Source: a virus (Duplodnaviria > Caudoviricetes). From it: 38,465 bases of DNA. The stretch lies in the IMG/VR virus record IMGVR_UViG_3300046739_000253, positions 1 through 38,465 of that record; one strand, written 5' to 3'. Both the position numbers and the translations under genes were made by a program. Positions 15,041-38,402 of the stretch are shown one piece after another (within the stretch, counting starts at the first letter, position 1; every line of letters begins with the position of its first letter). Under the pieces are notes generated by a model. It did no database searches, was not told where the DNA came from, and saw nothing but the letters and a program-made list of their open reading frames with translations.

Positions 15041-15087
15041 TGTCGTCTCCAGTGTCTCGGGGCGACCCAGCGCCGCCCCACCCAATG

Positions 15088-15117: not shown

Positions 15118-15146
15118 GCCCCCGTCAAACCTTGGGCTTTTCGGCC

Positions 15147-15497
15147 CTACGCCCGCCTCCCGCTCAGGACGCCGACGGCCTCGGAGGCCGCGCGTTCGAT
15201 GATGGCGGCGACGTAGCCCCGGCGCTCGCCGCACGCCTTCTCCGTCTCGCGGCGCAGCACGTCGGCCTTGTCGCGGGCGAGGTCGGTGATGACGGTCGCG
15301 GCCTCCTTCGCGTCGGCGACGATCTGCGCGGCCACCCGGTGGGCCGTGCTCGGCAGCATCGGCGACGGCAGGATGTCCGTCGCGATGTCGCGGACGATGG
15401 CGTCGCGCTGGTCGGCCAGCCACGGGCCGAGGTAGGTGTGCGGGCCGAGCTTCGCGATGAACGCGTCGAGGGCGGCGACTTCTAGGTCTTTGGTCAT
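15147..15497 (-). CDS. Hypothetical early protein, helical
   Basis: CACTGGAGACACGACC-ATG leader. Confidence 0.75.
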   Translation of the reverse strand: MTKDLEVAALDAFIAKLGPHTYLGPWLADQRDAIVRDIATDILPSPMLPSTAHRVAAQIVADAKEAATVITDLARDKADVLRRETEKACGERRGYVAAIIERAASEAVGVLSGRRA

Positions 15498-15521
15498 GGT
15501 CGTGTCTCCAGTGGTCGAGGG
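15495..15521 (-). repeat. 27-bp direct repeat, copy 1 (CCCTCGACCACTGGAGACACGACCATG); copy 2 at 15922-15948
   Basis: Exact match read from the sequence. The copies flank gene 15523-15924. Confidence 0.9.
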
Positions 15522-15522
15522 G

Positions 15523-15924
15523 TTAGAAACCGTTGCCGACGGGGAAGCCGAAGTGCGCCTTCAGCTTCGCGATCAGGTGCGACTCGGAGGTCGCGCCGAG
15601 CACCGCGCCGTCGCGGATGAGGACGCAGACGTTCGTCTCCAGTTGGCGCTCGCCCATGTAGGTCGAGGTGACGTAGAGGTCAAGCTCGGCGCAGCCCGGC
15701 GCGGCGGCGTGCGCGTCGATGGCCTTGATGGCGCGCAGCGCGACGAAGTCGCCGAGGTCGCTGTCGTCGGTCCAGTTCAGCGCGTTCGGCAGGTTCGCGC
15801 CGTCGCCGTTCGGCGAGCAGTCGCGCAGGCCGACCTCCGCGCAGGGCGCGAAGCCGCTGGTGTTCGCGCGGACGGCGGCGTTGATCGCCTTCCGCAGGGC
15901 CGGGGTGACGGGGATGCTGTTCAT
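15523..15924 (-). CDS. Hypothetical early protein
   Basis: Leader identical to that of the downstream gene. Confidence 0.75.
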   Translation of the reverse strand: MNSIPVTPALRKAINAAVRANTSGFAPCAEVGLRDCSPNGDGANLPNALNWTDDSDLGDFVALRAIKAIDAHAAAPGCAELDLYVTSTYMGERQLETNVCVLIRDGAVLGATSESHLIAKLKAHFGFPVGNGF

Positions 15925-15948
15925 GGTCGTGTCTCCAGTGGTCGAGGG

Positions 15949-16068
15949 TCAGAAGCTCTGCAGCCACGCGATCAGCGCGTCGGCGTGTGGCCTCGCCTGC
16001 TCGGGCTTGCCGCAGGCGAGGAAGGCGAACACCTTCGCGAGGTGGGTCGAGGCGGTCTGGCGGTCCAT
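15949..16068 (-). CDS. 39-aa early peptide MDRQTASTHLAKVFAFLACGKPEQARPHADALIAWLQSF (absent from the ORF track)
   Basis: Translated by hand. Has its own cUUCGg hairpin and CACTGGAG RBS. Its stop abuts the next repeat. Confidence 0.7.
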   Translation of the reverse strand: MDRQTASTHLAKVFAFLACGKPEQARPHADALIAWLQSF

Positions 16069-16074
16069 GTCAGT

Positions 16075-16113
16075 GTCTCCAGTGAGGCCGGGGGCCGAAG
16101 CCCCCGGCGGGTG
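16075..16113 (-). repeat. Hairpin-RBS repeat CACCCGCCGGGGGCTTCGGCCCCCGGCCT(T)CACTGGAGAC; near-identical copy at 18354-18393 and a variant at 13756-13790
   Basis: 9-bp stem with a cUUCGg tetraloop on the minus strand (6-bp stem in the variant), directly before the RBS. Confidence 0.9.
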
Positions 16114-16114
16114 G

Positions 16115-16495
16115 TCAGTCGTTGCGTCCGTTGGCGTCGCCGCGCCACGCCCCGGCGAGCTTCAGCGGCTCGGCGGCGAGGCCGAAGTGGTCAACCGGGT
16201 AGACGCCGACGCAGCGTGCGGCCTGCCAGACATAGCCCTCGGCGTTCTTGCGAGCGCCCGCCTCGGTGCGCGACCAGACGATGTGGTAGCGGACGCGCTG
16301 CGTGCCGGGGTGCGTCTTGCCTTGGTACTCGTAGGTTTCCGAGAGGGCCGGGTCGCCGATGCGGTTGCCCGTGACGCGTAGCCCGGCTTCCGGGTTCACG
16401 GCGGCTTCGGCGACGGCGGCGAAGCCGTAGGCGGTGCCTGACTTGCGGGTGAAGTTGCCGAAGGGGGTGTTGATGACGTTCGTGAGCTTTGCCAT
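16115..16495 (-). CDS. Hypothetical early protein (MAKLTNVINTPFG...)
   Basis: First gene after PL2. ATG lies 8 nt after CACTGGAG. Confidence 0.75.
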   Translation of the reverse strand: MAKLTNVINTPFGNFTRKSGTAYGFAAVAEAAVNPEAGLRVTGNRIGDPALSETYEYQGKTHPGTQRVRYHIVWSRTEAGARKNAEGYVWQAARCVGVYPVDHFGLAAEPLKLAGAWRGDANGRND

Positions 16496-16511
16496 TGGTC
16501 GTTCTCCAGTG

Positions 16512-16544
16512 TCTGGTGGGGCGACCCAACGCCGCCCCACCAGA
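16512..16544 (-). repeat. Leader hairpin GGGGCGGC-G(C/T)TGG-GTCGCCCC; second copy at 15059-15079
   Basis: 14-bp stem here and 8-bp stem at 15059. Both lie between a promoter and CACTGGAG. Confidence 0.85.
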
Positions 16545-16546
16545 AG

Positions 16547-16576
16547 AGTATGCGCCCAAACCTAGCGGACTGTCAA
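16547..16576 (-). promoter_or_regulatory. Sigma70-type leftward promoter PL2
   Basis: TTGACA-18 nt-CATACT. Confidence 0.65.
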
Positions 16577-16581
16577 CCCCC

Positions 16582-17523
16582 TCATATTCCCTCGAAAACT
16601 GCCATCAGCTTGTCTCGCAGCGCCTGACGACTGCCGCGCAGGGCGGCGTTCTGGGCGCTCAGGCCGACCAGTTGCTCGCGGGCCAGCCCGAGAACCGCCA
16701 CGGCGTCGTCCAGCATCCGCAGCAGTTCGGTGAGCGAGGTGTCCACTGCCGCCTCGGTCGTCGCCCCAGCGGCCACCAGCGCGGCCACAGAGGGCTTCTG
16801 GGGCAGGTCGGCGGCGACCGCCTCCAGCGCCGCCTGCGCCCCCGGCGTGACCGTCAGGGTCGGCACGTTGGCCGGGTCGAGGCGCATCGACAGCAGGTCG
16901 GGCACGTCAGGCGGCACCGGGGTGTGCTTGAGGCGCTCCTCCTCCAGCGCCCGCTCGATGCCCCGGCGCACGACGCTGACGGTGGACTGCACCGACACCA
17001 GCGTCGTCGTAAACCCGTGCGTGTAGGCCGACCGCAGCAGGCGCTCGGCCTCGGCCTTCTGGTGGCCGTGGTCGCTGCCGTAGACGTAGTTGCGCTCGAT
17101 GAAGCTGAACAGCGACCCGGTCCACTTCTCGCTCGGGGCGTCGGGGTGCTTCGGCGTCTCCAGTGTCTTCGGTTGCAGCGGCTGCAGCAGGCGGCGCACC
17201 TCGCCGGTCCCGAGCAGCGCCGGGTGGACGAAGGTCTGCGTCCCCTTCGCGAGGTCGCAGACGCGGCGGTGCTGTCGGTGGCCGATCCACTTGAAGAACA
17301 GCACGACGCCGATGTCGCCGCGCAGGTTCGCGGCCTTGTCGATCTCCGGCCCCTCTGAGGGCCAGAGGCAGATGCGCGGGTCGTCGGCGACCCACTGCGG
17401 CAGGTTGCCAGCCTTTGTCCCAACGATCAGGATCCGCCGTTGGTTTGCGACCGCGTCGAGGATGGCATTGGCGACGGGTTCACCGGGTGGTAGCAGGTCA
17501 CGAAGTGGCGTTGACATGGTCAT
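16582..17523 (-). CDS. DUF2325-like N-terminal domain plus C-terminal coiled coil
   Basis: RILIVG...VVLFFKWIGH......DLAK...G resembles DUF2325. AAGGAG RBS before the ATG at 17523. Confidence 0.55.
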   Translation of the reverse strand: MTMSTPLRDLLPPGEPVANAILDAVANQRRILIVGTKAGNLPQWVADDPRICLWPSEGPEIDKAANLRGDIGVVLFFKWIGHRQHRRVCDLAKGTQTFVHPALLGTGEVRRLLQPLQPKTLETPKHPDAPSEKWTGSLFSFIERNYVYGSDHGHQKAEAERLLRSAYTHGFTTTLVSVQSTVSVVRRGIERALEEERLKHTPVPPDVPDLLSMRLDPANVPTLTVTPGAQAALEAVAADLPQKPSVAALVAAGATTEAAVDTSLTELLRMLDDAVAVLGLAREQLVGLSAQNAALRGSRQALRDKLMAVFEGI

Positions 17524-17858
17524 GCTCCTTTTCGAGCGTATCGAGCGCGTTTCCGAGCCGCCCGGCAGACGAGGCAGGCTTGATGCCCGCTGCCGAGTAG
17601 AACGTAGGCGTGCCCCTTCGGGCAGTGTGTGTGTCGAGGCTTGTGGTGCCGCCCGTGGGCAGCGCCAGACATCAGGGCGAGGTGGTTCGGGTTGATGCAC
17701 GCGCGGACGCCACAGCGGTGGTGGACGCACTGCCCCGGCGGGATCGGCCCGACGAACACCTCGTAGGCGAGGCGATGCACCCGCCAGAGACGACCGGCGT
17801 GCTTCACCACGCCGTAGCCGTCAGGGCGGCGAGTGCCGGTCCAGAGCCAGCACTTCAC
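17520..17858 (-). CDS. HNH endonuclease
   Basis: CWLWTG...GYG...VHRLAYE...GPIP...VHHRCGVRACINPNHL, plus a THCPKGH...CLVC tail. Confidence 0.9.
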   Translation of the reverse strand: MKCWLWTGTRRPDGYGVVKHAGRLWRVHRLAYEVFVGPIPPGQCVHHRCGVRACINPNHLALMSGAAHGRHHKPRHTHCPKGHAYVLLGSGHQACLVCRAARKRARYARKGA

Positions 17859-18349
17859 AGTGCATCCTCCTGCGCGACCGCCGCGAGGGCGGGGAGCGCG
17901 GCCCGCACGCGCTGCTGGACCGCTGCGATGCGGGCAGCGGCCTCGGCAGGCGACGGCAGGGGCTTGCCCGAGACGAGGCTGACGGCGGCGCTGGGGGGCG
18001 TAGGACGGGTCGGGGGCACCGGGCGGGGCACACGCGCGCCGCCGGGCAGGTTCGTGCTCTGGCGGGCCGCAGGAGCCGCCGGAGGGGCCGTCTCAGCGAC
18101 GACCGGCTGCGCGAGCGCCTGCGCCAGTTGGTGCCGCACGGCGTGCCACCGGGCGCGCACGGCGTCGGCGACATCCGGGGCGGTCACGGCGACCAGCGAG
18201 AAGTGGAGGGCCGACGCCTGCTGCTCGCGGTCGAGCAGGCCGACGGGGACGCCCTCGGTGACGAGGTAGCAGAACGCGCGGAGGCCGAACGCCTCGGCGG
18301 TTTCGCCGGGCTGCTGCCGGGCGAGGACGGGGATGCGGGGGAAGCTCAT
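17855..18349 (-). CDS. Hypothetical early protein with a Pro/Ala-rich linker
   Basis: Hairpin plus CACTGGAG leader. Confidence 0.7.
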   Translation of the reverse strand: MSFPRIPVLARQQPGETAEAFGLRAFCYLVTEGVPVGLLDREQQASALHFSLVAVTAPDVADAVRARWHAVRHQLAQALAQPVVAETAPPAAPAARQSTNLPGGARVPRPVPPTRPTPPSAAVSLVSGKPLPSPAEAAARIAAVQQRVRAALPALAAVAQEDAL

Positions 18350-18398
18350 GGTCGTCTCCAGTGAAGGCCGGGGGCCGAAGCCCCCGGCGGGTGAGGTG

Positions 18399-19409
18399 TT
18401 ACGCCGCCACCAACTGGCGGGCCTGCGTGAGGGCGAGCACCTTGACCTCGGCGTTCGCGCCGAAGAGGGCCGACTCGTTCGCCCGCTGGCGACCGCTGAC
18501 CGAGGATGCCTCGGCAGGACGGACGTGGTCGAAGTACTCCGTGACGGCGTTGTAGACCGACCACGCGTTCGGGTCGCCGCCGGTCAGGACGGTCGCCTGC
18601 TCGACGCCGACGCCTTCGAAGACCAGCCGCGACACCGTCGCCCGGCGCTTCGCCAGCGTGTCGTTGACGACCAGCTTGCCGCCGACGACCTCGCCGGGGA
18701 ACACCGACTCGATGTAGGCGATGACCTCGCTCGGGTTCAGCTTGCGCTGGGCCAACTGCTTGAAGCTCTCGCCCGTGGCGATCAGCGACTTGGTCAGGCC
18801 GGTGAAGAGCGCCCGCGCCTGCTCGACGCGCGACGCCGCCGACGTGGTGTGGCGGATGCTCACGACGTTCGCGTGGGCCTCGCTGCGGGCCAGCGCGATG
18901 GTGTTCTGGCAGACCGCGCGGGTGCCGGTCGCGATGATCTTCACCGCGCCGCTGCCGTCGTGCGACCACGTCAGGAGCGCGTAGCCCTGCACGCTGTCGC
19001 CGTTGCCGGTGACATCGACCGTCGCCCCGGCCAGCCGCACCAGCGCCCAGAGCCGCTCGCCGCGCCCGAGGGAGCCGATGACCTCGATGGTCGCGCCCAG
19101 TTCCTCGACCGCCGTCTCCAGAATCGAGACGGCCTGCCGGTTCTGCACCGCCGCGTAAGACGGGCCGACCACCGCCAACTGCGCGAGGTCGGTCGAGCGC
19201 CGGGCCAACTGGCCGAGCGGGATGAGCGAGCCGGTGCCGTCGTAGAGCGGCTCAAGGATGACGGTCCAGTCGAGGCCAGCCGCCGCGAGCGACTGGTCGA
19301 TGGAGTAGCGCACGTCGCCGCGTAGGCGGGTGCCGAGGCCGTGCCACGGGGTCGAGCCGATGTAGGCGATGGACGACTGGCCGTTGATGGTTGCGATGTT
19401 GTGAGCCAT
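18399..19409 (-). CDS. DUF932 / TIGR03299-family phage-plasmid protein
   Basis: MAH...PWHGLG, AAGLDW.V, Y..VQN, GSL..G...W, SHDGS, R.VCQNT, RHT, AWSVYNAVTEYFDH. Confidence 0.9.
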   Translation of the reverse strand: MAHNIATINGQSSIAYIGSTPWHGLGTRLRGDVRYSIDQSLAAAGLDWTVILEPLYDGTGSLIPLGQLARRSTDLAQLAVVGPSYAAVQNRQAVSILETAVEELGATIEVIGSLGRGERLWALVRLAGATVDVTGNGDSVQGYALLTWSHDGSGAVKIIATGTRAVCQNTIALARSEAHANVVSIRHTTSAASRVEQARALFTGLTKSLIATGESFKQLAQRKLNPSEVIAYIESVFPGEVVGGKLVVNDTLAKRRATVSRLVFEGVGVEQATVLTGGDPNAWSVYNAVTEYFDHVRPAEASSVSGRQRANESALFGANAEVKVLALTQARQLVAA

Positions 19410-19442
19410 TGGTCTGATCTCCAGTGAACGAGGGTTGACGAG

Positions 19443-19688
19443 TTAGCGGACGCGGACGGCGAACTTCTTGCCGCCGCCGAAGGTCGGGACGACGTAGGTC
19501 GTGGCGCTCAGGCCCGCGCGGTGCGCGAGCGTGACGGCGGCGCTCACCGCGTGGTCATCGAAGCTGGTCAGCGTGACGCTCTTCGGGTTGATCTGGATGC
19601 GGAGGGCGTGCAGCAGGGCGTCGTTCGCCTCGACGGCGTTGATGAACTTCTGCTGGGCGGCTTCGGCGGCAGCGGTGAGCTTCGTCAT
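19443..19688 (-). CDS. First early gene, hypothetical (MTKLTAAAEA...)
   Basis: Directly after PL1, a hairpin and CACTGGAG. Confidence 0.75.
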   Translation of the reverse strand: MTKLTAAAEAAQQKFINAVEANDALLHALRIQINPKSVTLTSFDDHAVSAAVTLAHRAGLSATTYVVPTFGGGKKFAVRVR

Positions 19689-19734
19689 CGGTGTCTCTCC
19701 AGTGCGTCGCCGCGACAATCGCGACGACCTGCCA

Positions 19735-19765
19735 AGTATACGTCGAAACCTAGCCACCGCGTCAA
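19735..19765 (-). promoter_or_regulatory. Sigma70-type leftward promoter PL1
   Basis: TTGACG-19 nt-TATACT (long spacer). Confidence 0.6.
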
Positions 19766-20680: not shown

Positions 20681-21066
20681 CCGACTGTGTGCTCTGGCCC
20701 GGCTACGTGATGCCCAACGGCTACGGGCAGGCGTATGACCCTGCCCGGTATCTCGCAGGCGAGCGCCCGCAGGTCTACGCGCATCGCCTCGTCTACGAGC
20801 AGCACGTCGGGCCGATCCCGGCGGGGCACGAAGTGCATCACCGTTGCGGGGTGAAGGCGTGCGTGAACCCCGCGCACCTTGAGGCGCTGACCTACTCCAC
20901 GCACAAGCGCACGCACCGGAGCGTCTGCAAGAACGGCCACGCCATCGACGGCGACAACATCAGCCGCTGGTCGGCTCGCGACGGACGCGAGCACCGCCAG
21001 TGTCGAACCTGCTACAACGCGCGGATGCGTGCCTTTCGCGCACGCCGCACTGGAGAAGCCCGATGA
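20677..21066 (+). CDS. HNH endonuclease
   Basis: CVLWPG...NGYG...AHRLVYE...GPIP...VHHRCGVKACVNPAHL, plus CKNGH...CRTC. Confidence 0.9.
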   Translation: MTDCVLWPGYVMPNGYGQAYDPARYLAGERPQVYAHRLVYEQHVGPIPAGHEVHHRCGVKACVNPAHLEALTYSTHKRTHRSVCKNGHAIDGDNISRWSARDGREHRQCRTCYNARMRAFRARRTGEAR

Positions 21067-21947
21067 CCGAAGAACAGCAGCCGCCCACCCCGGCGGTCGA
21101 GAGCGGGGTGTTCGCGCACTCCCCCACGTTTGCCAAGCTCGCCGCCGCGCTCGCGAAGGCGCAGGCCAACTACGGCGACCTGAAGGCGTCGCAGGTCGCT
21201 GACGCCGAGAAGTACGTCTACAAGTACGCCGACCTCGCGGCGGTGCTCGCGGCGGTGCGCCCGGCGCTGAACGCAGCGGGCATCGCGCTGTTGCAGGGCG
21301 TCGCCATGCAACGCCCGCAGGGCAGCAGCGGGCTGATCGTGCTGGTCGAGACGCGCCTGATCGACCAGTCGGGCGAGTGGCTGGCGACGACCGTGAAGCT
21401 CCCGAGCGGCGAGGTCGCGCCGCAGAAGGTTGGGTCGCTGGTTTCATACCTTCGTCGGTATGCCCTGCTCGCGATGGTCGGGGTCGCTGCCGAGGACGAT
21501 GACGGCAAGGAGGCCCAGCAGGCCGCACCGCCGAAGCGCACGGCCCCGCCTGCGCCGCCGAAGACGCAGCCCGCGACCGCCAAGCCGGTGGCCGCGCCCA
21601 AGCCGGTGCCCGCGACGCCGCCTGCCGAGGAGCGCGTCGAGCCGCGCGTCATCGCCGACCCGGTGCGCGAGGACGGGGTCCGCATCAGCGCGAAGGACCG
21701 GGGCTTGCTCTTCAAGGTGGCGAAGGAGCAGGGGCTGAACGAGACGCAGGTCAAGCAGTTGATCTTCGCGCTCTGGGGCTACACCTCGACCGGGGCCATC
21801 CTGCAGGGCGCGCAGTTCGGCAAGCTGCTCTCGGCGATGGAGAACCCGCAGGACCACGGCGTCACCATCGGCAACGGCGACCTGACCTACGACCGTGCGC
21901 AGGACGCCAACCCGCTGCCGGGCAACCCTGACCTCGGGGGACTGTGA
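21063..21947 (+). CDS. erf: ERF-family single-strand annealing protein
   Basis: LAAALAKAQ, YKYADL, SGEW, PQKVGSLVSYLRRYAL...EDDDG. Start at 21063 behind CACTGGAG. Confidence 0.9.
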   Translation: MTEEQQPPTPAVESGVFAHSPTFAKLAAALAKAQANYGDLKASQVADAEKYVYKYADLAAVLAAVRPALNAAGIALLQGVAMQRPQGSSGLIVLVETRLIDQSGEWLATTVKLPSGEVAPQKVGSLVSYLRRYALLAMVGVAAEDDDGKEAQQAAPPKRTAPPAPPKTQPATAKPVAAPKPVPATPPAEERVEPRVIADPVREDGVRISAKDRGLLFKVAKEQGLNETQVKQLIFALWGYTSTGAILQGAQFGKLLSAMENPQDHGVTIGNGDLTYDRAQDANPLPGNPDLGGL

Positions 21948-22198
21948 TGGCGAAGGCACGCGCGCCCCGTGCGGGGCCGAAGGTCTACGCCAAGCAGTTG
22001 GTCATCGAGGTGCCCAAGGCGATGCTGGAGGAGGCCGCGCAGCAGGCGTGGCCTGACCTCGTCACGCTGGCCGAGGGCGCAGGCTGGCGGGTCCGCGACA
22101 CCGACGACTACCTCTGGTGCAGCAAGGACCACGCGCTGCTGCGGCAGGGCACCGACGAGATGCGCGGCATCCCGGTGCTGCTGTTTCAAAACTGGTGA
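21947..22198 (+). CDS. Hypothetical protein
   Basis: TGATG coupling at both ends. Confidence 0.6.
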   Translation: MAKARAPRAGPKVYAKQLVIEVPKAMLEEAAQQAWPDLVTLAEGAGWRVRDTDDYLWCSKDHALLRQGTDEMRGIPVLLFQNW

Positions 22199-22782
22199 TG
22201 CCGACGCTGCACTTCGACCACGAAACCCACACCTTCTGGCGCGAGGGCCAGCGGGTGCTGGGCGTCACTGAGATCCTGCGGCGGTGCCGCCTGACCTCGC
22301 CCTACTGGACCGTCGAGGCCCGCAACCGGGGCACGCGCGTCCACAAGGCGCTGCACGTCCTGCAGACGCTCGGGGACGCCGAGGCCCGCGCGCATCTGCT
22401 GGCGGGCGACCTGCCGTTCTACGCGGCGGGCGTGCGGGCGCTGGACACGTTCGGCATCGAGGTGCTCGGGGCCGAGGAACTGGTGGACGGCGGCAGCTAC
22501 GCGGGCTGGCTGGACCTGCGCTGCCGCCTCCGGGGGCGCGACCTGCCGATGGTCATCGACTTCAAGACGGGCCGCGCCGCGCCGTGGACGCCGCTCCAGT
22601 TGGCCGCGTATGCTGCCCCGCAGCCGACGCCGCACGACCGGGCGTTCATCGAACTGCTCCCGTCGGGAGCGCCGAAGCTGACGGTCTGCCGCGAGCATCG
22701 CGGCGACCTGCGGCACTTCAACGCCTGCGTCGCCGTGGCGCAGTTGCAACTGGCACTGGAGATCCCTGATGGCGAAGACTGA
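22198..22782 (+). CDS. PD-(D/E)XK (Cas4/RecB-like) phage exonuclease
   Basis: FDHETHTF...GVTEIL, RGTRVH, YAGWLD, VIDFKTG, LQLAAY. Confidence 0.85.
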   Translation: MPTLHFDHETHTFWREGQRVLGVTEILRRCRLTSPYWTVEARNRGTRVHKALHVLQTLGDAEARAHLLAGDLPFYAAGVRALDTFGIEVLGAEELVDGGSYAGWLDLRCRLRGRDLPMVIDFKTGRAAPWTPLQLAAYAAPQPTPHDRAFIELLPSGAPKLTVCREHRGDLRHFNACVAVAQLQLALEIPDGED

Positions 22783-23470
22783 GACGCTCGTCGTGTTTGA
22801 ACCCGCCACGCACATCGACCTCGCCGAGGTGGCGACGTGGGTGGTGGACGGCCCCGAGACGGCGGAACTGGCCGTCGAGTATCGCGAGGGCGTCAAGGCG
22901 CTCATCCGCGAGATCGAGGCGGGCTACAAGCCGCACGTCGCCCGCGCCCACGCCGCGCACAAGGCGCTCTGCGAGGAACTGCGCCTGCGCCTGCTGCCCT
23001 GCACGGTCGCGCTCGACGCGCTGAACCGGGCCATCGGCAGCTACGAGGTGGCGCGGCAGCGGGCCGAGGAGAAGGCCCGGCGCGACGCGGAGGCGGCGGC
23101 ACTGGCCGACGCGGAGGCCGCACGGGCGTCGGATGCCGAGGCCGCACGGCTGCGCGGGAACACGGCGCTGGCGGCGTCCATCGCCTCGGCCCCGGTCGAG
23201 GAGTTCATGGCCCCGGTGGTCGTGCCCCCGACGAAGAAGACCTCGGGCGTCGCGGTGACGGTCACCTACGAGCCGGTGGTCGAGGACTTCGACGCGCTGC
23301 TGCAGTTCGCGGCGGCGAGCGACAGCGCGATGCGTCCGCTGCTGGTGCAGGCGAACCTGAAGGGGCTGCAGGCGCTGGTCGATCAGATGGGCGAGGGGTT
23401 CAATGTGCCCGGCGTCACGCGCGTGATGCGGACCCCCACCGTTCGTAGCACGCGCGCGGGGCGTTCCTAG
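22769..23470 (+). CDS. Coiled-coil protein of phage recombination modules, function unknown
   Basis: Long helical body and a C-terminal V.D...L...VPGV motif. CACTGGAG RBS. Confidence 0.65.
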   Translation: MAKTETLVVFEPATHIDLAEVATWVVDGPETAELAVEYREGVKALIREIEAGYKPHVARAHAAHKALCEELRLRLLPCTVALDALNRAIGSYEVARQRAEEKARRDAEAAALADAEAARASDAEAARLRGNTALAASIASAPVEEFMAPVVVPPTKKTSGVAVTVTYEPVVEDFDALLQFAAASDSAMRPLLVQANLKGLQALVDQMGEGFNVPGVTRVMRTPTVRSTRAGRS

Positions 23471-23480
23471 ATTTTGTGGC

Positions 23481-23550
23481 TTGCGCCTGACCGGCGCGAG
23501 GACCGAGAATCGTGCCCGACGCGCCGAGTGGGGTCAGCGCGTCGGGTCTT
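23481..23550 (+). promoter_or_regulatory. Putative promoter and leader hairpin of the replication operon
   Basis: TTGCGC-18 nt-GAGAAT, then the stem CCCGACGCGC...GCGCGTCGGG followed by TCTTT. Confidence 0.4.
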
Positions 23551-23578
23551 TCCCGGTTGCCAACGTGAGGTGAGCACG

Positions 23579-23797
23579 ATGACGGCACAATCCTATCAGA
23601 CCGCGCCCGAGCTTGCGAGGGAACACCTCGCGCTCTCTGAGCACACCTTGGCCGAGGAGGTCGCCCGCTACCGCGAGGCGCTCTACCGCAGCCTCGACCT
23701 GCTGCACGACACCCTCCAGTCGTTCGACACGCTGCAGGGGCGCTACGAGCGCCTCCTGACCGAGAACCGCGCCCTGCGGGCCGAGTCGCGGGCGTGA
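23579..23797 (+). CDS. Small coiled-coil protein
   Basis: GAGGTGA RBS. GTGA overlap with the helicase gene. Confidence 0.65.
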   Translation: MTAQSYQTAPELAREHLALSEHTLAEEVARYREALYRSLDLLHDTLQSFDTLQGRYERLLTENRALRAESRA

Positions 23798-25107
23798 ACA
23801 AGCCGCTGCCGACCGGCGACGACCTCTTCAGCCGCGACCCCTCGCGCACCTTCCGGGTGGTCGAGGACACCTACCGCTACACGGCGCTCGACGGCGCGGT
23901 GGAACTGCGGATCACCGGGCTGCACCGCGAGCGCGGGCACCTCATCGGCGAGATCACCGCCCGCACCAGCCTGCCCGGCGCACGCACGTTCGGCAAGGAC
24001 GGCACGACGCTGTTCACGGAGCGGGTCAACCTGATGTTCGCCCGCGACAAGCAGTCCCTCGCCCGTAACTGCGCCATCCGCGCCGCGACCAACCCGCGCG
24101 ACGTGCGCTGGGAAGACCTCATCGAGGACTTCGTCCAGCGCGTCATCGACACCGAGAAGGAGGGCGAGCCGCTCGCGTGGATCCACGCCGCCGCCCGCAC
24201 GCCGCCTGACCGCTGCGTCACCGTCTACGGGATGCCGATCTACCTCGACCACCCGCAGGTCTTCTTCGGCCAAGCGGCCACGGGCAAGAGCATGATCGCG
24301 CTGGCGATGCTCGGGGAACTGGGGCGGCTCGGCATCAGGAGCCTCATCCTCGATTGGGAGATGGAGATCGGCGTCCACAAGGACCGCTTCGACGCGCTCG
24401 GCCTGCCGCCGACCATCGCCCATATGCGCTGCGCCGCGCCCCTGACCGTCATCGCCGACGCCGTGAAGCAGCGGTGCAGCGAGGCCGACATCCAGTTCCT
24501 CGTCATCGACTCGGCCATCCTCGCGTGCGACGGCAAGCCCGAGGACAGCATCGTCGCCAAGGACTTCCACGCCGCCCTGCGCCGCATCGGGCGCGGCTCC
24601 CAACTGATCGCCCACACCCGCGCCGAAGACCCCGGCAACGCCCGCGAGCCGCAGCAGCAGCGCCCCTTCGGCTCCGTCGTCTGGCACAACAGCGCCCGCG
24701 CCACATGGTTCGTCAAACGCGTGAACGCCGAGACGGACCTCGCCCACATCAACAACGGGATCTACAACCCGAAGGCCAGCTTCCGGGGCACCACGCCGCC
24801 CTACGGCCTCGCGCTCGACCTGACCGAACGGGGCGACGGCACCCTCGACAACATCACCGTGCGCCGCACCAACCTCGCCGACGAGCCGGAACTGGCCGCG
24901 ACGCTGCCCATCCCGGCCCGTATCTACGCCGCCCTCGCCTCCGGCAAGATGACGCAGGCCGAACTGGTCGAGCAGACGGGCGCGAAAGCGTCGTCCGTCA
25001 AGGCGAACCTCCACCGCTACAAGGGCACCAAGTTCACCCTCATCACCAGCGACCGGGACGGGGTCCACCGCTGGGGGCGGCTGGAGGGTCGCCACGATGA
25101 CGAGTAA
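23794..25107 (+). CDS. SF4 / RepA-like (AAA_25) replicative helicase with C-terminal winged HTH
   Basis: Walker A GQAATGKS, Walker B FLVIDS, LIAH, PFGSVVWHNSAR, and MTQAELVEQTG...SVKANLHR. Confidence 0.85.
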   Translation: MNKPLPTGDDLFSRDPSRTFRVVEDTYRYTALDGAVELRITGLHRERGHLIGEITARTSLPGARTFGKDGTTLFTERVNLMFARDKQSLARNCAIRAATNPRDVRWEDLIEDFVQRVIDTEKEGEPLAWIHAAARTPPDRCVTVYGMPIYLDHPQVFFGQAATGKSMIALAMLGELGRLGIRSLILDWEMEIGVHKDRFDALGLPPTIAHMRCAAPLTVIADAVKQRCSEADIQFLVIDSAILACDGKPEDSIVAKDFHAALRRIGRGSQLIAHTRAEDPGNAREPQQQRPFGSVVWHNSARATWFVKRVNAETDLAHINNGIYNPKASFRGTTPPYGLALDLTERGDGTLDNITVRRTNLADEPELAATLPIPARIYAALASGKMTQAELVEQTGAKASSVKANLHRYKGTKFTLITSDRDGVHRWGRLEGRHDDE

Positions 25108-25113
25108 GACCCC

Positions 25114-25213
25114 GTCACAGTGTGACCGTCACACTGTGACCAAACCGTTCTGTCACACCCACCCTCCCTCCCTTTAGGGAGGGTGTGACGGTCGTCGCAG
25201 TCACGTCACACCC
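25114..25213. repeat. Putative replication origin: GTCACA/TGTGAC iterons and nested palindromes
   Basis: GTCACAGTGTGAC-C-GTCACACTGTGAC (perfect 13-bp inverted repeat), GTCACACCC...GGGTGTGAC around CCCTCCC-TTTA-GGGAGGG, and further GTCAC copies. Directly after the helicase stop. Confidence 0.65.
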
Positions 25214-25226
25214 ACTGGAGCATCGC

Positions 25227-25463
25227 ATGACCACCGACCGCCCCGCGCTCGTCCCGTATCCGCTCAACGCCGTGTTGGCGTTCCTCACGAAAGGCACCCC
25301 GCTGCCCGATGTCGCGCCGCCCATCACGATCCTCACGATCTCCGAGGGCCAATGGACGACCGTCCATCGCGTCGGCTACGAGGAGTTCGGGACCATCCTG
25401 CTGGAACTGGACGACAACGAGCAGCCCCTGCGGGCCTACCGCAAGCCGGAGCCACGGGCGTGA
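25227..25463 (+). CDS. Hypothetical protein (MTTDRPALVP...)
   Basis: CCCACTGGAG RBS. Confidence 0.7.
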   Translation: MTTDRPALVPYPLNAVLAFLTKGTPLPDVAPPITILTISEGQWTTVHRVGYEEFGTILLELDDNEQPLRAYRKPEPRA

Positions 25464-25759
25464 GCTTCAAGCGCGGGGAACCCGTCCACCTCTGGTGGCG
25501 CAAGCAGGTCGTCGCCAGTCGCGTGCTGGAGGTTCGCAGACGCCTGCTCGTCGTCGCAGGACCGGAGGGGCCACTCACCGTGCCTCGTCAACGCGTCTGG
25601 CGTCCCTCGGAGCGCCCAGAGCTTCACCCCGGAAAACCGGGGCCGCGCCCGCGATGCGACAATCGAGCTTCCCCTCCGGGGGGAACGGGGGGGTTCCGAG
25701 GGGGCTGTCGGTTCTCCGACACCCACCTTCGCTCGAAAAGCGAAGCGCCTCCGTGGTGA
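25460..25759 (+). CDS. Hypothetical protein
   Basis: GTGA coupling. The C-terminal half is low-complexity and may be under DNA-level constraint. Confidence 0.4.
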   Translation: MSFKRGEPVHLWWRKQVVASRVLEVRRRLLVVAGPEGPLTVPRQRVWRPSERPELHPGKPGPRPRCDNRASPPGGTGGFRGGCRFSDTHLRSKSEAPPW

Positions 25760-25858
25760 AGAGATCTCAGGGGGGGCCGCTACTACCCCCGTCTGGACGC
25801 GGTCGCGTTCAACGTGGGGCAACCTAGCGGTCTACAGCCCCATGTCCGGTTGTGGGAT

Positions 25859-25871
25859 TATCAACAACTTA
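25859..25871 (+). promoter_or_regulatory. IHF consensus site
   Basis: TATCAACAACTTA matches WATCAANNNNTTR, in an AT-rich intergenic region. Confidence 0.55.
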
Positions 25872-25997
25872 CGGGTGGTGAGAATCTTTTCACAGTGTGC
25901 CATTCTGAGACACGCGTGGCACACTTCATGTTAGGTGCTGGAAGTTGTTGCAAACGCGCCACTTCGCGGTAAGGGTCAAGTGCCCTAACGTCCAAAT

Positions 25998-26384
25998 ATG
26001 CGAAAAGCCCAATGTTTCGTGCCCGGTCGCCCGGTGCCCCAAGGGTCGATGCGGTCGCTCGGGAAGGGGCGCATGACGCACAACAGCGTCCATCTCAAGG
26101 CGTGGCGCACCGCCGTCGGCTGGGCCATGCGGGCCGCGCTGGGCACCGAGCCGCCGACCGAGGGCGAGGTCTGGATGAAGCTCCACTTCGTCGTCCAGCC
26201 CCGGCGGCAGGGCGACGCGCCCGACCTCGACAAGCTGGTGCGGGCGGTGCTCGACGCCCTAACGGGCATCGCCTATCTGGACGATAAGCAGGTCGTCGCC
26301 ATCAACGCCCGGCGCACGCTGCTCGGGCCTGACGCGCTCGCCAGCGACCGCGAGGGCGTCACCATCGAACTGGAGCCGCGATGA
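25998..26384 (+). CDS. rusA: RusA-family Holliday junction resolvase
   Basis: VPGRPVPQGS...PDLDKLVRAVLDALTGIAYLDDKQVV. Confidence 0.92.
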   Translation: MRKAQCFVPGRPVPQGSMRSLGKGRMTHNSVHLKAWRTAVGWAMRAALGTEPPTEGEVWMKLHFVVQPRRQGDAPDLDKLVRAVLDALTGIAYLDDKQVVAINARRTLLGPDALASDREGVTIELEPR

Positions 26385-26899
26385 GCAGCACCGAGCCGTT
26401 CGACCTCGTCAGCCACCCCGACGCGCACTCCAACCTGCTGCGCGAGCGGCTGCTGCAGTTGTCGCTGGCCTCGGCGCTGGCGCTGCCCGGCGAGCGGTGC
26501 GTGGTCAGCGCCCGCGACCTGCACGACGTGACGACGCAGGCGCTGGACCTGACGCAGGAACTGCTGATGCTGCGGCGCTGCCTGATCGTGTTCATGCGCG
26601 CGTCGCACGTCGAGGCGCTCGCGCTGCCGTTCGCCGAGACGGTGCTGGCCTCGACGGTGCCGCTGCGCGTGAAGCACGACCCGCACGCGCTGCCCGACCT
26701 GCTGCAGTTGCTGCTCGACGGCGAGGGCTTCGTGACGGTCAGCAGCAGCGCCTACGCGTCGCCTCCGGCGCTGTTCGACAGCGAGGGCCAGAGCGAGGCC
26801 GCGCGGCTCAGGGCGGCGCTCATCGAGGCGCGGCAGGCCATCGTCAACGCGGGCGGCAGCGACACGGTGCTGGCGCTCATCGACGTGAGCTTGCGGTAG
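26381..26899 (+). CDS. Hypothetical protein
   Basis: AACTGGAG RBS and ATGA coupling. Confidence 0.65.
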   Translation: MSSTEPFDLVSHPDAHSNLLRERLLQLSLASALALPGERCVVSARDLHDVTTQALDLTQELLMLRRCLIVFMRASHVEALALPFAETVLASTVPLRVKHDPHALPDLLQLLLDGEGFVTVSSSAYASPPALFDSEGQSEAARLRAALIEARQAIVNAGGSDTVLALIDVSLR

Positions 26900-26910
26900 G
26901 ATACCCAGCC

Positions 26911-27324
26911 ATGCCGCACCGCCTGCTGCTCGCGCTGCCCCTGCTCGGTCTGCTGGCGGGGTGCTCGACGCTCTGCGGCTGCTCCGAGGACAAGAGCGTC
27001 TCCGTCATCGCGCCCGACCCGCCTGCGCCGCCGCCAGCGGTCCACGTCATCGACTTCCACGTCACGGGGACGGACCCCGGCACGGTGGAGATCACGCTCA
27101 CGTCGAGCACCGAGGGGACGAGCACGATCCGCACGAACCTGCCGTGGTTCTCGACGCTGAAGACCACGCGCACGTCGAGCTTCCTCTCGCTGTCGGCGAA
27201 GGACCGCGACTTCTTCAGCGGCACCATCACGGTGCAGATCTTCGTGGACGGGCAACTGTTCCGCGAGGCGAGCGTGACGGGGTTCAACCCGGTCGCAGCC
27301 ATCGACGGCACATGGACGAACTGA
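26911..27324 (+). CDS. Lipoprotein with an MmpS-like beta-sandwich domain
   Basis: Signal peptide with lipobox LLAG-C and a Pro linker. FHVTG...LPW...LSA...ITVQIFVDG pattern. Confidence 0.65.
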   Translation: MPHRLLLALPLLGLLAGCSTLCGCSEDKSVSVIAPDPPAPPPAVHVIDFHVTGTDPGTVEITLTSSTEGTSTIRTNLPWFSTLKTTRTSSFLSLSAKDRDFFSGTITVQIFVDGQLFREASVTGFNPVAAIDGTWTN

Positions 27325-27785
27325 TCCGCGTGCGGCTCATCGGCTACCTCGGTCGCCCGGCGTTCATGGTGCGGCAGCAGCCTCGGCGCATCGGGCGGGC
27401 GGGGCTGCGTCCGTCGGTGACGCAGGACGAACTGGTGTCGCTGCACGCGTGGTTCCGCATCCCGCGCCGCGAGATCGACGCGGTGGTGGTGGCGCGGCAG
27501 GCCGCAGACCGGGCACGCGGGGCGGTGAACAAGGCGGTGGCGGCGCACGCGCACGGCGGGCTGTCGCCGTTCGACGCGGAGTGGCAGGGCGCAGCCGCCG
27601 AGTGTGCGGCGAGCCGGTGGCTGGGTCAGCCGGTGCGGACGCACGCGCCCGACCTCGGCTGGGACTTCCTGCACGACGGCAGGACGCTCGACGTGAAGGG
27701 CACGGCGCATCGAGACGGGGTGCTCTACTTCCCGTCGCTGGCCGCGTTCAAGGCCGACGAGGCTGCGCTGGGGGTGATCGCGTGA
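27312..27785 (+). CDS. Hypothetical protein, possible PD-(D/E)XK nuclease fold
   Basis: G..AE.A...WL...WDF.....LDVKGT. Confidence 0.45.
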   Translation: MDELIRVRLIGYLGRPAFMVRQQPRRIGRAGLRPSVTQDELVSLHAWFRIPRREIDAVVVARQAADRARGAVNKAVAAHAHGGLSPFDAEWQGAAAECAASRWLGQPVRTHAPDLGWDFLHDGRTLDVKGTAHRDGVLYFPSLAAFKADEAALGVIA

Positions 27786-28135
27786 AGCCTGCGATGCCCG
27801 ACATGGCCGACACGGTCTTCTGCGCCCTCGCGCATCTGCCCGACCTCGGCGCGGCGTTCGCGCTCAACGGCGAGGGCGAGGCGCTGCTACGGCTGTCGCT
27901 GGACCCGGCGAGTGTGGCCGGGCTGACCGACGTGCTGCAGGCGCTGCGGAACCGCACGTTCTACGTCGCGCTGGTCGCGACACCGAAAGGGGCACGCCAT
28001 GCCCGTGAAGACGAAGGCACCGGATCGGTTTCCGAATCGGAACCGCAAGCCGAGGAAACCCCGGAAGCCGAGGGGCCGCGCCCTCGCCGCCGCCGCCGAG
28101 TACCTGCTGACAAACCCGACCGCCGCACTCATTGA
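27782..28135 (+). CDS. Hypothetical protein
   Basis: GTGA coupling. Its 3' end overlaps the next ORF by about 135 nt. Confidence 0.45.
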   Translation: MKPAMPDMADTVFCALAHLPDLGAAFALNGEGEALLRLSLDPASVAGLTDVLQALRNRTFYVALVATPKGARHAREDEGTGSVSESEPQAEETPEAEGPRPRRRRRVPADKPDRRTH

Positions 28136-28463
28136 CAAGCACACCGGCAAGCCGGATGGCGAGCGGATCATCGAGGCGCTGAGTGTGCTCGCGACGGGGA
28201 CGGGCGAGCAGGTCGCGAAGTTCTTCGGCGGCTACTACCGGCTGCGGGCGCGGGACCGGCAGGCGGCGCTCAACGTGCTGGAGCAGCGGCGCTTCGGGCG
28301 GGTGCCGCAGATCGATGAGGTGCCGAGCGAGCACCGGCCCACGACCATCGTGAACGTGTTCACGACGAGCGAGGAGTTTGCGTTCGTCACCGCGCAGCAG
28401 CCGAAGCTGGTTGGCTCGACGCGCGCGTTGCCCACTGGAGAGCCTGATGACCGAGACGGCTGA
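27999..28463 (+). CDS. Putative terminase small subunit
   Basis: Basic N-terminus, helical core ending R..A...LE.R.FG..PQ and a beta tail. Lies upstream of the large subunit. Confidence 0.45.
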   Translation: MPVKTKAPDRFPNRNRKPRKPRKPRGRALAAAAEYLLTNPTAALIDKHTGKPDGERIIEALSVLATGTGEQVAKFFGGYYRLRARDRQAALNVLEQRRFGRVPQIDEVPSEHRPTTIVNVFTTSEEFAFVTAQQPKLVGSTRALPTGEPDDRDG

Positions 28464-36500: not shown

Positions 36501-36698
36501 ATGTCGATCATCGGCCTGCTCGTTGCGCTGCTGCTGTTCTGCCTGCTCGTCTGGGCCTCGCAGGCGCTGCTGACCGCCTTCGGCATCGCCGACCCGCTCC
36601 GCACTGTGATCTGGGTCGTCGTCGTGATCCTCGGCGTGCTGATCATCCTCGGGTATCTCGGCGCGCCGCTCCCGACCTACGGACACCTCCGGCCTTGA
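36501..36698 (+). CDS. Two-TM small membrane protein (holin-like)
   Basis: Two hydrophobic helices in 65 aa. TAGGAG RBS. Confidence 0.6.
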   Translation: MSIIGLLVALLLFCLLVWASQALLTAFGIADPLRTVIWVVVVILGVLIILGYLGAPLPTYGHLRP

Positions 36699-36724
36699 CA
36701 GTCGAGGCCACGCAGCCGTAACCT
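36695..36724 (+). promoter_or_regulatory. Sigma70-type promoter of the capsid operon / leader RNA
   Basis: TTGACA-18 nt-TAACCT, same spacing as PL2 and PL3. Confidence 0.7.
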
Positions 36725-36730: not shown

Positions 36731-36818
36731 CGACCGGCAGGGGCAGACGGCTCTCGCGCCAAGGGACTTACTCCAGTGGGTTCCGACCGCGCAGGGCACT
36801 CTCGCCCCTGCTAGTTTT
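36731..36818 (+). ncRNA. Candidate ~88-nt rod-shaped small RNA with apical CUCCAGUG (complement of the early-gene RBS motif)
   Basis: Three stacked stems (36736-44/36804-12, 36750-58/36788-97, 36763-71/36776-84) with five G-U pairs that work only on the + strand. UCCA loop and a 3' UUUU. Confidence 0.55.
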
Positions 36819-36823: not shown

Positions 36824-36921
36824 CCCCGATGTCACGCGCGTCGGGGCACACGGTGTGACCTGCAGTGCGTGCTGCTGCTCGCTGGCCCGGTTGGCCGCTG
36901 GCGACTGCGTCGAGGCCAACC
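36824..36921 (+). other. Further structured leader RNA (possible pseudoknot plus hairpin)
   Basis: CCCCGAU/GUCGGGG stem whose loop GUCACGC can pair with GUGUGAC (36853-59). GGUUGGCC/GGCCAACC stem at 36889-36921. Confidence 0.4.
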
Positions 36922-36982: not shown

Positions 36983-37453
36983 ATGGTGACTTTCACGGTC
37001 GGAGCCGGTGACGGCTTCCGCGAACTGCGTCAGACGCGGATCATGTATTTCCTTGAAGGGGCGGCGCAGACCTTCAAGACGGGCGCGGTGGTGATCCTCA
37101 CCGCCGGGAAGGCCGTGAAGGGCGCAACCGCTGCGGTCGCGACCATCCTCGGCATCGCCGCCGAAGCGGCCAGCGGCGTCACCGACCGGAAGATCGGCGT
37201 GCTCGTCGCCGACGAGAACAGCGAGTTCCAAGGCCGCGTGCAGGACACGGGCGTGCTCGCGCTGGCGCTGGTCGGCGGGCAGTTCGGCCTCGTCCTCGAC
37301 GCCGTGGGCGGCAAGGACATCTTCCGCGTGAACATCGCGGACACGACCAACAAGGCCGTCGTCATCACCGAACTGATCGACGCGGTCGGCGACGTGAACG
37401 GGCGGGTCGCGTTCAAGTTCCTCAACGCGGTGCGGACGCCGCAGCAGTCGTAG
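36983..37453 (+). CDS. Capsid decoration / cement-type protein
   Basis: 156-aa small-residue beta-rich protein (F..G..V.L..G...A...ILGIA.E) directly before the major capsid gene. Confidence 0.6.
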   Translation: MVTFTVGAGDGFRELRQTRIMYFLEGAAQTFKTGAVVILTAGKAVKGATAAVATILGIAAEAASGVTDRKIGVLVADENSEFQGRVQDTGVLALALVGGQFGLVLDAVGGKDIFRVNIADTTNKAVVITELIDAVGDVNGRVAFKFLNAVRTPQQS

Positions 37454-37484: not shown

Positions 37485-38402
37485 ATGCAAGTACGTGGAA
37501 CTTTTGCGGCGCTGTACGACAACGTCGATAAGACGGTGTACGCGCTGCTCGGCAAGCAGTTGAAGGAGCTTCCCCCGATCTGGACCGACATCTACTCGCG
37601 CAAGAGTTCCTCGCGCAAGTTTGAGCGGTTCCAGACGGTCACGCCGTTCGGCGACGTGCCCGAGAAGCCCGAGGGCAGCGTCTACGCCTTCGACCTGATC
37701 CGTCCCGGCTACAGCAAGGACGTGACCCCGGTCGAGTTCGGCCTCGGCTTTGAGGTCACCGAGACGGCGATGGAAGACGACCAGTTCGACGTGCTGCAGC
37801 GGCAGGCGTCGTGGCTGGCGTTCAGCGCCCGCGTCGTGCAGGAGAAGTACGCGGCGATCCCGTTCAACCTCGGCTTCTCGACGCAGCTTGCGCCCGACGG
37901 CGTCTCGCTGTTCAATACCGCCCATGTGCTCGCGGGCGGCGGCACGGCCCGCAACCGCCCGGCGACCGATGCCGACCTGAGCTACGACTCGCTCAATCAG
38001 GCGATCATCGACGTGCAGACGGACACGAAGCTGGAGAGCGGGCAGTTGGTCGCGCCCGTGATGAACTGGATCCTCTACGTGCCGCCCCAGTTGGAAATGC
38101 TCGCTGACCGCCTGCTGAACAGCACGCTGCTGCCCGGCTCGGTGGACAACGACGTGAACCCGATCAAGCGGCGTCGGAACATCCGCATCCTCACCAACCC
38201 CTACCTCACCGACGCCGACGCGTGGTACCTCGTCGCCGACGCGAAGGAAACGCACGGCCTCGTCTGCGTGGACCGCGTCGGCATCACCGCCGCGCCCGCG
38301 ATGCAGGACGCCCGCACCGGCAACCGGATCTACAAGGTGCGCTTCCGGCAGGCGTGGGACGCTTTTCTTTGGCAGAATATCTATGGAACTGCTGGAGCGT
38401 AA
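37485..38402 (+). CDS. Major capsid protein (HK97 fold, Mu gpT-like)
   Basis: FG.VPEKPEG, FGLGFEVT..AMEDDQF, DGVSLFNTAH, LYVPPQLE..A..LL.S, NPYLTD.DAWYL. Confidence 0.9.
   Translation: MQVRGTFAALYDNVDKTVYALLGKQLKELPPIWTDIYSRKSSSRKFERFQTVTPFGDVPEKPEGSVYAFDLIRPGYSKDVTPVEFGLGFEVTETAMEDDQFDVLQRQASWLAFSARVVQEKYAAIPFNLGFSTQLAPDGVSLFNTAHVLAGGGTARNRPATDADLSYDSLNQAIIDVQTDTKLESGQLVAPVMNWILYVPPQLEMLADRLLNSTLLPGSVDNDVNPIKRRRNIRILTNPYLTDADAWYLVADAKETHGLVCVDRVGITAAPAMQDARTGNRIYKVRFRQAWDAFLWQNIYGTAGA

Follow-up and report, generated by a model that had tools for sequence, protein, structure and literature searches.

A Candidate Leader RNA of a Phage Capsid Operon with a Seed Complementary to the Ribosome-Site Tag of Early and Middle Genes

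Ribosome-Site Motifs and Regulatory RNAs of Phages

In mycobacteriophages of cluster K (PMC3203893, PMC11373665) and Microbacterium phages of cluster EF (PMC7302621), 10-19 non-structural genes are described as sharing a conserved asymmetric motif, SAS or ESAS, at the ribosome site; according to the same accounts, ATG is the start codon that usually follows the motif, and a sigma-A-like promoter with an operator-like element often precedes it. One copy is reported in opposite orientation in four K1 phages, and the passages of PMC3203893 that treat it leave open whether RNA or protein is involved. The role of SAS is called unknown in PMC11373665 (2024), in which, from RNA-seq, late transcription appears to start between Adephagia genes 92 and 93 and Table 1 gives an Hfq-like structural match for Adephagia gp39. 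The phage analysed here is similar to these phages in having an asymmetric motif at non-structural ribosome sites, in one orientation and with ATG a few bases downstream, sigma-70-like promoters with an operator-like word upstream and, as for K1 SAS, a single opposite-orientation copy in a hairpin loop. It differs from them in belonging to an unrelated phage group and in having no 13-bp consensus of cluster K or EF, its top words being CACTGGAG and variants; moreover, co-variation between the opposite copy (the seed) and the motif (the tag) is seen here, among its relatives. K2, K3 and EF examples are without an antisense loop, and the passages on SAS give it neither a function nor an antisense hairpin.

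For an RNA made from a late promoter, the closest precedent is StxS, which PMC7547250 describes as an Hfq-bound RNA from the lambdoid late promoter PR', made in lysogens, ending at tR' and targeting rpoS and stx1AB. The RNA predicted here would likewise come from the 5' end of a late operon with a host-type promoter and pair in trans, but it would address a tagged set of early genes. For phage specificity, the closest case is c4 of P1/P7, presented in PMC12197685 as a structured RNA whose loop pairs near a ribosome site and whose sequence differences set the specificity of the phage; in contrast to c4 and CI-type immunity RNAs, our candidate has 14 dispersed targets on both strands and is predicted to fold as a rod; it matches nothing in Rfam, and no integrase was found. 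For class-wide shut-off, the closest is T4 RegB, which hits a class of early mRNAs via GGAG in the Shine-Dalgarno sequence; RegB, however, is described as a protein nuclease needing S1 (PMC1702504), whereas the reader predicted here is an RNA seed that co-evolves with the tag.

In mechanism, the candidate RNA is best compared with a multi-target anti-Shine-Dalgarno RNA, and it lies outside any Rfam family. The bacterial RNAs with C-rich loops, such as RsaE, RNAIII, AbcR and cuckoo RNAs, mask many ribosome sites with one exposed C/U-rich seed; these are host RNAs acting on generic G-rich sites, whereas here a private tag changes with the seed from phage to phage. P4 CI, P22 sar and lambda OOP are structured antisense RNAs with one or a few targets, encoded in the immunity regions of temperate phages. 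To our knowledge, phage antisense RNAs in general reach one or a few targets, and RegA exemplifies the shut-off of early phage translation by a protein. The open-access literature, to which our search was largely confined, yielded no phage RNA with a seed co-varying with a shared ribosome-site tag.

The Tag, the Rod and the Capsid-Operon Leader

The window, namely the whole stretch of DNA analysed, is a 38,465-base phage record of 70% G+C in which a simple custom gene caller found 54 genes. Near relatives with terminal repeats measure 43-45 kb, so that about 4-5 kb of the phage genome is absent from the window. Matches to PHROGs include the large terminase, portal, major capsid, an Erf-like protein, exonuclease, RusA and HNH. 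A plus-strand structural block runs from 29253 to the window end and from the window start to 12291, a minus-strand cassette of short genes occupies 12275-19688, and plus-strand non-structural genes fill 19855-29253; we call genes early, middle or late from this layout.

The octamer CACTGGAG occurs 17 times in the window against 1.35 expected, a count reached by none of 100 shuffles, and 14 of these copies have an ATG 6-9 nt downstream, exactly the number of tagged leaders given in the first-pass annotation. The 14 sites are arranged as follows.

13758..19704, minus strand: ten tagged ribosome sites of the early cassette (13758, 14248, 15047, 15506, 15933, 16077, 16504, 18356, 19419, 19697), that at 19419 belonging to a DUF932 gene
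21048..28440, plus strand: four tagged ribosome sites of non-structural genes (21048, Erf-like; 22754, exonuclease-like; 25213; 28433)

Two copies not linked to ATG, at 6386 (plus) and 17158 (minus), lie in sense inside called genes; the third, at 36771-36778, is the sole copy antisense to its local transcript, again as had been noticed before. The 14 targets carrying the tag CACUGGAG lie on both strands, with none within the capsid operon; the ribosome site of the capsid gene, CACTAGGAG, is the tag plus one inserted A. The gap that holds the antisense copy measures 284 nt and is flanked by genes of 65 and 156 aa; the copy itself is 46 nt past a TTGACA-18-TAACCT promoter which we find where it had been annotated. 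The features of this leader and of the operon behind it are listed below.

36695..36724, plus strand: sigma-70-like promoter of the capsid-operon leader, with TTGACA (36695-36700), an 18-nt spacer and TAACCT (36719-36724)
36731..36818, plus strand: predicted RNA rod, a candidate regulatory RNA or the 5' end of the capsid-operon mRNA, with putative ends
36768..36779, plus strand: invariant tip UUAC-UCCA-GUGG with the seed CUCCAGUG at 36771-36778 (12 of 12 columns invariant)
36824..36846, plus strand: second leader hairpin, co-varying (5 of 9 pairs change on both sides in seven sequences)
36879..36921, plus strand: predicted H-type pseudoknot, separate from the seed (4 of 8 pairs of stem 1 change on both sides; stem 2 is invariant)
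36983..37453, plus strand: 156-aa gene, first in the operon after the leader, with no family match
37485..38402, plus strand: major capsid protein gene (phrog_371, E 9e-13)

The position of the 156-aa gene suggests a head protein. A promoter of the form TTGACA-17/18-TAnnnT lies at the equivalent place in G002, G003, G004, G005, G007 and G009. That of the window is absent from the output of a consensus scanner because its -10 box matches just three of six positions. Judged on sequence only, a host-type promoter heads the late operon, and the first-pass view of the RNA as a late-expressed species is not supported: the leader promoter is sigma-70-like, the same as the early promoters. Ahead of it, the small hydrophobic gene at 36501-36698 (matching places in L006-L013) is replaced by dissimilar small membrane-like genes in close relatives and is missing from the sister clade.

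The rod at 36731-36818 is predicted to fold with -51.2 kcal/mol (z -5.56, equalled by none of 200 shuffles), against -39.4 kcal/mol and z -2.21 for the reverse strand, in agreement with the structured plus-strand rod described earlier. The rods of five relatives have z values of -4.98 to -8.50 on the plus strand, the minus strand being weaker in each, so that the plus strand folds better in all six cases including the window. The apical stem is also recovered, with three G-U pairs among its 9 bp and UCCA as its loop; its tip comprises two U-G wobbles, an A-U pair, a C-G pair and the 4-nt loop. The complementarity to the tag is exact, as had been stated, but it is not confined to the loop: it spans the loop (36772-75), the closing C and the 3' strand of the wobble stem, leaving four seed bases in the loop proper. 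The 10-nt match claimed for the leaders at 14248, 25213 and 28433 is likewise present, but its tenth pair is not kept in relatives, where the conserved pairing covers 8-9 nt.

Conservation singles out this tip. The six distinct rods, from the closest relatives (capsid identity 96-99%), share an identical 12-nt tip, TTACTCCAGTGG, while only 1 of 48 flanking columns is invariant, at a mean identity of 35%; for comparison, 49 of 147 four-fold sites of the capsid gene are invariant. In the stem below the tip, both sides change in 6 of 10 pairs and 90% of cells remain paired, against 35-46% in slid controls, and the covariation score is equalled by none of 500 shuffles, a control that kinship inflates. 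Among the 81 windows of eight bases in the rod, the three that open most easily start at 36769-36771 (3.8-5.4 kcal/mol), and in the window clade the cost of opening the seed is equal in 110-nt and full-leader folds. A 24-nt covariance model finds the known tip as its sole match in the window. Rfam 15 gives no match in the window, C4 included, and the best E value in 36480-37050 is 2.6, far under gathering scores; the RNA falls in no Rfam family, which is the outcome of a check proposed with the first annotation.

The 3' end is less well defined. The UUUU proposed as the end of an RNA of about 88 nt is indeed present in the window, but the U-run is poorly conserved, with 3-5 U in G002-G004, a shifted position in G005 and near absence in G007; a terminator scan gave nothing at 36818 and no conserved intrinsic terminator after the rod, and the length of 88 nt is putative. 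We considered whether the 36771 copy might serve a tiny gene on the minus strand as ribosome site and rejected this, since such a gene would start with TTG in the window and has no start at that spacing in G002, G004 or G007; a regex scan found no minus-strand promoter near 36771. The leader of G004 contains a second CTCCAGTG (L009, about 3095, 629 nt before the capsid start), and degenerate versions of it occur at 36858-36866 of the window and elsewhere. The second hairpin and the pseudoknot, between the rod and the first operon gene, are found also in L015-L018, L024, L259 and L260; stem 2 of the pseudoknot is altered in seven of nine other leaders examined, and the sister clade keeps the pseudoknot with such a changed second stem. 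This may be a separate element for late control or packaging.

Structural genes avoid the tag. A match to the seed of at least 7 nt is found in 18 of 301 late genes versus 105 of 337 other genes (Fisher p 9e-17, with genes that are not independent and a few, at piece overlaps, counted twice). The four bases that the seed predicts upstream of GGAG precede only 1 of 111 late GGAG sites, and in 9 of 11 genomes no other four-base word is as common ahead of the non-late GGAG sites. The Shine-Dalgarno core of tagged sites is limited to GGAG, while several late genes use AGGAG, one base longer. Within the late region of the window, genes 30946 and 35824 match the seed over 7 nt.

Two side observations concern individual ribosome sites. 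G-C-rich hairpins with a UUCG loop lie directly 5' of several tagged sites on the minus strand (13766-13790, 16085-16110, 18364-18390) and are likely stabilisers or terminators of the early cassette. In most relatives, the ribosome site of a 222-aa gene (35810-35823) has the form (C/T)TGGAGTA(G/A) and shares bases with the stop codon that precedes it. Pairing of this site with UUACUCCAG could extend over 9-10 nt; the site may represent a late target, the sequence from which the seed arose or simply a conserved protein end.

Seed and Tag among Related Phages

Capsid searches returned 40, 80, 80 and 3 loci, partly overlapping, from which 29 relatives were taken, whole or partial. After dropping the fragments G006 and G022, which are without most of the early region, the later tests covered 28 genomes including the window, 11 of them near and 17 distant. 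The closest annotated capsids are just 30-35% identical, and the capsid leader has no DNA match among 50,697 annotated phage records. In the capsid tree the six CACTGGAG genomes form one clade. Early cassettes appear duplicated (families D3, D13 and D16). As to the host, the capsid contig and the early-region contig of a close relative, G039 (L333, L390), are binned in one Polyangia MAG, a weak lead given that both contigs are short and phage-like and that binning is no proof; elsewhere in this MAG the tag is not enriched (five other sites vs eight control matches).

When all 8-mers are scored for ATG linkage in each genome, seed and tag are found to change together. The top ATG-linked 8-mer is CACTGGAG or an overlapping word in G000, G002-G005 and G007, and their capsid leaders carry CTCCAGTG. 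In G009 the top word is TCCGAGGA and the capsid leader has TCCTCGGA; G010, with CGAGGGAG, and G012, with CCCGAGGA and CGAGGGAG, both have CTCCCTCG in the leader. In G015 the pair is GGGAGACA and CTCCCTCA, and in G014 a weakly ATG-linked ACACTGGA/ACTGGAGG goes with CCTCCAGT. The same ranking gives no comparable ATG-linked 8-mer in the distant genomes. The central proposal of the first-pass annotation, an RNA seed addressing a tagged gene set, is thereby strengthened and withstands the refuting condition set there for relatives: those with CACTGGAG keep its complement at the tip, those with TCCGAGGA, CGAGGGAG or ACTGGAGG carry matching seeds, and distant genomes have neither. The nearest published parallels, namely the SAS-type sequences, StxS and RegB, do not figure in that annotation. 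Six of the 11 near genomes belong to one close clade, and the evidence of co-variation hence amounts to about four seed words rather than 11 events.

For a blind test, a region of fixed length (400 nt) was taken ahead of each capsid gene, and its best antisense 8-mer was compared with 60-292 overlapping null windows per genome. In 10 of the 11 near genomes and 1 of the 17 distant ones, this 8-mer ranks 1-4 among all ATG-linked 8-mers and no null window does as well. The lone distant genome, G035, was rejected as a chance case, its word not being Shine-Dalgarno-like and one of its three sites being the leader copy itself. The near genome that fails is G015 (rank 50, with 134 of 234 null windows as good), where only the 7-mer GAGGGAG fits the seed, at 7 of 10. 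A swap of tips gives a consistent picture: the window tip matches 14 of the 54 window genes over at least 8 nt and the tips of G009, G010, G012 and G015 match none, while in their own genomes these tips match 6, 6, 11 and 1 genes, respectively. The tip of G010 suits G015 better than its own does (4 vs 1 at 8 nt). An orthologous 116-aa gene illustrates the rewriting: four genomes have CACTGGAG there, G009 has TCCGAGGA and G012 has CCGAGGGAG, and the gene bears no tag in G010 and G015.

The fit is looser in some members. Five leaders of G012 read CCGAGGAG and need a bulge for pairing, and the seeds of G014 and G015 do not predict the four bases that most often stand ahead of GGAG in these genomes. 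The seed lies at the rod tip in the window clade, in a stem loop in G014 and in an extreme 5' hairpin in G009-G012 and G015; G009, G010, G011 and G015 have two predicted seed folds, a short 5' hairpin and a competing long rod, and the longer of these folds would, by prediction, bury the seed of G010, at 13.4 kcal/mol to open. The 5' end of the G015 RNA (L024, about 9270-9283) could pair with GAGGGAG plus CACAUG at the start codon, across a bulge, which may offset the poor 8-mer fit.

Other leaders of the wider group have features of their own. Those of a distant clade (L203-L249, L269, L304) contain repeated GCCGCC...GGGCG units without an anti-tag seed and represent a different candidate structured RNA, and a tRNA-like sequence lies in the capsid leader gap of one distant relative (L028, about 2420-2500). 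A pattern scan of viral contigs gave 120 loci, of which the 12 with BLAST matches to the late proteins of the phage analysed here repeat rods already known; the remainder look like chance and were discarded.

Probable Masking of Early Messages and Its Alternatives

The feature is real and under selection. The joint changes of leader seed and tags are most simply explained by pairing between the two, which, summed over the readings that involve it, we hold to be very likely. It is rather probable, in our judgement, that a trans-acting RNA masks the tagged Shine-Dalgarno sites, lowering early and middle translation during a probably lytic infection. Transcription would begin at the sigma-70-like leader promoter, with the plus strand as the RNA strand and the seed, from predicted folding, as its most easily opened part. 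The loop would pair first, UCCA meeting UGGA, and the wobble stem would then be invaded; covering GGAG and four upstream bases, the seed could select its targets over late and host sites of AGGAG type. Ribosome binding would be blocked at the masked CACUGGAG sites, and repression would grow as the RNA accumulates. Its active form could be a terminated or processed RNA of 85-95 nt, or the 5' end of the long capsid mRNA. In a simple helix-plus-opening model the predicted net binding to the 14 tagged sites is weak, with a median of -3.7 and a range of -1.8 to -6.5 kcal/mol, and the median for 18 late and 21 other genes is 0; gene 26381 (-5.1) and the late-region gene 30946 (-2.6) are further candidate targets. 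Since predicted binding is weak, a helper protein is probably needed; a phage Hfq was found in none of the five complete relatives.

Control may act in two layers, in which a DNA-binding protein would close the early promoters and the leader RNA would mask early messages already made. The early promoters have the form TTGAC(A/G)-17/19-(T/C)AnnnT, and their spacer contains an operator-like word that may point either way, as in the following examples.

19735..19765, minus strand: early sigma-70-like promoter with the operator-like word in its spacer
16547..16576, minus strand: early sigma-70-like promoter with the operator-like word in its spacer
15086..15117, minus strand: early sigma-70-like promoter with the operator-like word in opposite orientation

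In 11 genomes this word, picked after inspection of the sites, is present in 27 of 33 non-leader promoter-like sites vs none of eight leader promoters; being without it, the leader promoter would stay on when the early promoters are shut off. Divergent from the first early promoter lies a 90-aa HTH-like gene (19855-20127, plus strand) with homologues in 7 of the 11 genomes, whose likeness to HTH proteins comes from language-model features and is taken as a lead only.

The timing and direction of the pairing can be viewed differently: Could the RNA be made all the time, or be itself the target? If it were constitutive in a carrier or non-integrated prophage state, it would confer immunity or superinfection exclusion, and seed and tag would diversify for mutual escape as in P1/P7 c4. 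The sigma-70-like nature of the leader promoter would suit such a role, as would the differences in seed between related phages, the failure of swapped seeds to match and the HTH-like gene (as a lead); precedents are c4 RNA, presented as the basis of P1/P7 heteroimmunity via pairing near a ribosome site (PMC12197685), and StxS, described as made in lysogens from an always-on late promoter (PMC7547250). However, no tyrosine or serine recombinase (PF00589, PF00239) was found in any of the five complete relatives, which favours lytic timing over lysogenic immunity and weakens the superinfection option that had been raised at first, and the matching Adephagia gap is described in PMC11373665 as a late lytic transcription start; we consider immunity improbable. 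In the reverse direction, abundant early mRNAs would bind the nascent seed, switch the fold of the leader and gate capsid read-through, thus timing the late operon. The seed does belong to the 5' leader of the capsid genes, where it is followed by a conserved hairpin and a pseudoknot, and it lies in a rod without a firm terminator after it; G009, G010, G011 and G015 have the two competing folds that such a switch could use, but the window-clade rod is predicted to fold alone, its seed being equally costly to open with or without the rest of the leader, and a trigger RNA would not need a tag fixed at Shine-Dalgarno spacing in 14 genes, which makes this direction quite unlikely.

Two further readings dispense with masking by RNA. 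A protein, either an RNA binder like RegA or RegB or a DNA-binding regulator, could read the tag, or the tag could be a copied strong ribosome site, and the leader copy would then be a protein site or a by-product. T4 RegB is reported to inactivate early mRNAs at GGAG (PMC1702504), and for SAS the relevant statements of PMC3203893 leave protein or RNA open, while a protein is put forward as a speculation in PMC11373665; tags unaccompanied by an antisense loop occur in three cultured phages, and the apparent duplication of early cassettes would fit copying. Yet an RNA-binding protein would not bind the complement, and reading of a DNA site would need neither one orientation nor fixed ATG spacing (the operator-like word does occur both ways); furthermore, the leader copy lies in a G-U-rich, co-varying stem on the plus strand and changes with the tag. 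Scans of 48 and 37 ORFs gave no match to a RegB/RegA-type family, although most early proteins are without family and the missing 4-5 kb of genome lie outside the window. A CsrA-type site was rejected, the word ANGGA that defines it being absent from CACUGGAG. We regard a protein reader or copied site as very unlikely, and give just as little credence to a helper RNA whose pairing would shield tagged leaders against a nuclease directed at GGAG or, in place of the usual anti-Shine-Dalgarno, bring them to ribosomes. Such help would make sense of tagged sites that have only GGAG, compared with the AGGAG of several late genes, in early genes that need strong expression, and the leader promoter could fire early; but GGAG itself, the part of a ribosome site that has to pair with 16S rRNA, is covered by the seed, and late genes use ordinary AGGAG-type sites, from which the host ribosome appears normal.

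Masking of tagged sites by the leader RNA can be extended into a more general proposal, which we hold to be evenly balanced: that the phage uses an RNA address code, with private tags at early sites and one seed in the late leader rewritten jointly in each lineage and the seed shifting between a rod tip and a 5' hairpin, which would also explain K1 SAS and constitute a recurrent, independently evolved early-to-late switch. Natural seed/tag pairs that do not cross-match point to an RNA-addressed regulon and could serve as compact multi-gene translational switches. For SAS, unexplained since 2011, the proposal provides a specific hypothesis of function, K1 being a cultured test system on a laboratory host; in cluster K, Adephagia gp39 is a possible helper for an SAS-directed RNA. 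Against such generality, tags can exist without an antisense RNA, because Pixie, TM4 and AnnaSerena (PMC7302621) have 16, 9 and 10 sense tags and, whether or not G-U pairs are allowed, nothing that convinces as an antisense loop. The SAS motif used in a similarity search retrieved only two weak matches, which were uninformative. Between genes 96 and 97 of Anaya, the opposite-orientation SAS copy lies in the loop, 10 nt long, of a hairpin whose region matches 151 records, 149 of them Mycobacterium phages. The antisense word lies in a hairpin loop in five of seven stretches examined, SirPhilip and Oscar being without the exact word, and in Adephagia this copy is found at 58684-58694, between genes 92 and 93. 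At L376:34850-34902, L385:1685-1695 and L381:412-419, cluster K phages expose the SAS complement in the loop of a hairpin that heads the late transcript, and in Paola the corresponding hairpin has a different stem and lies just before the small terminase gene.
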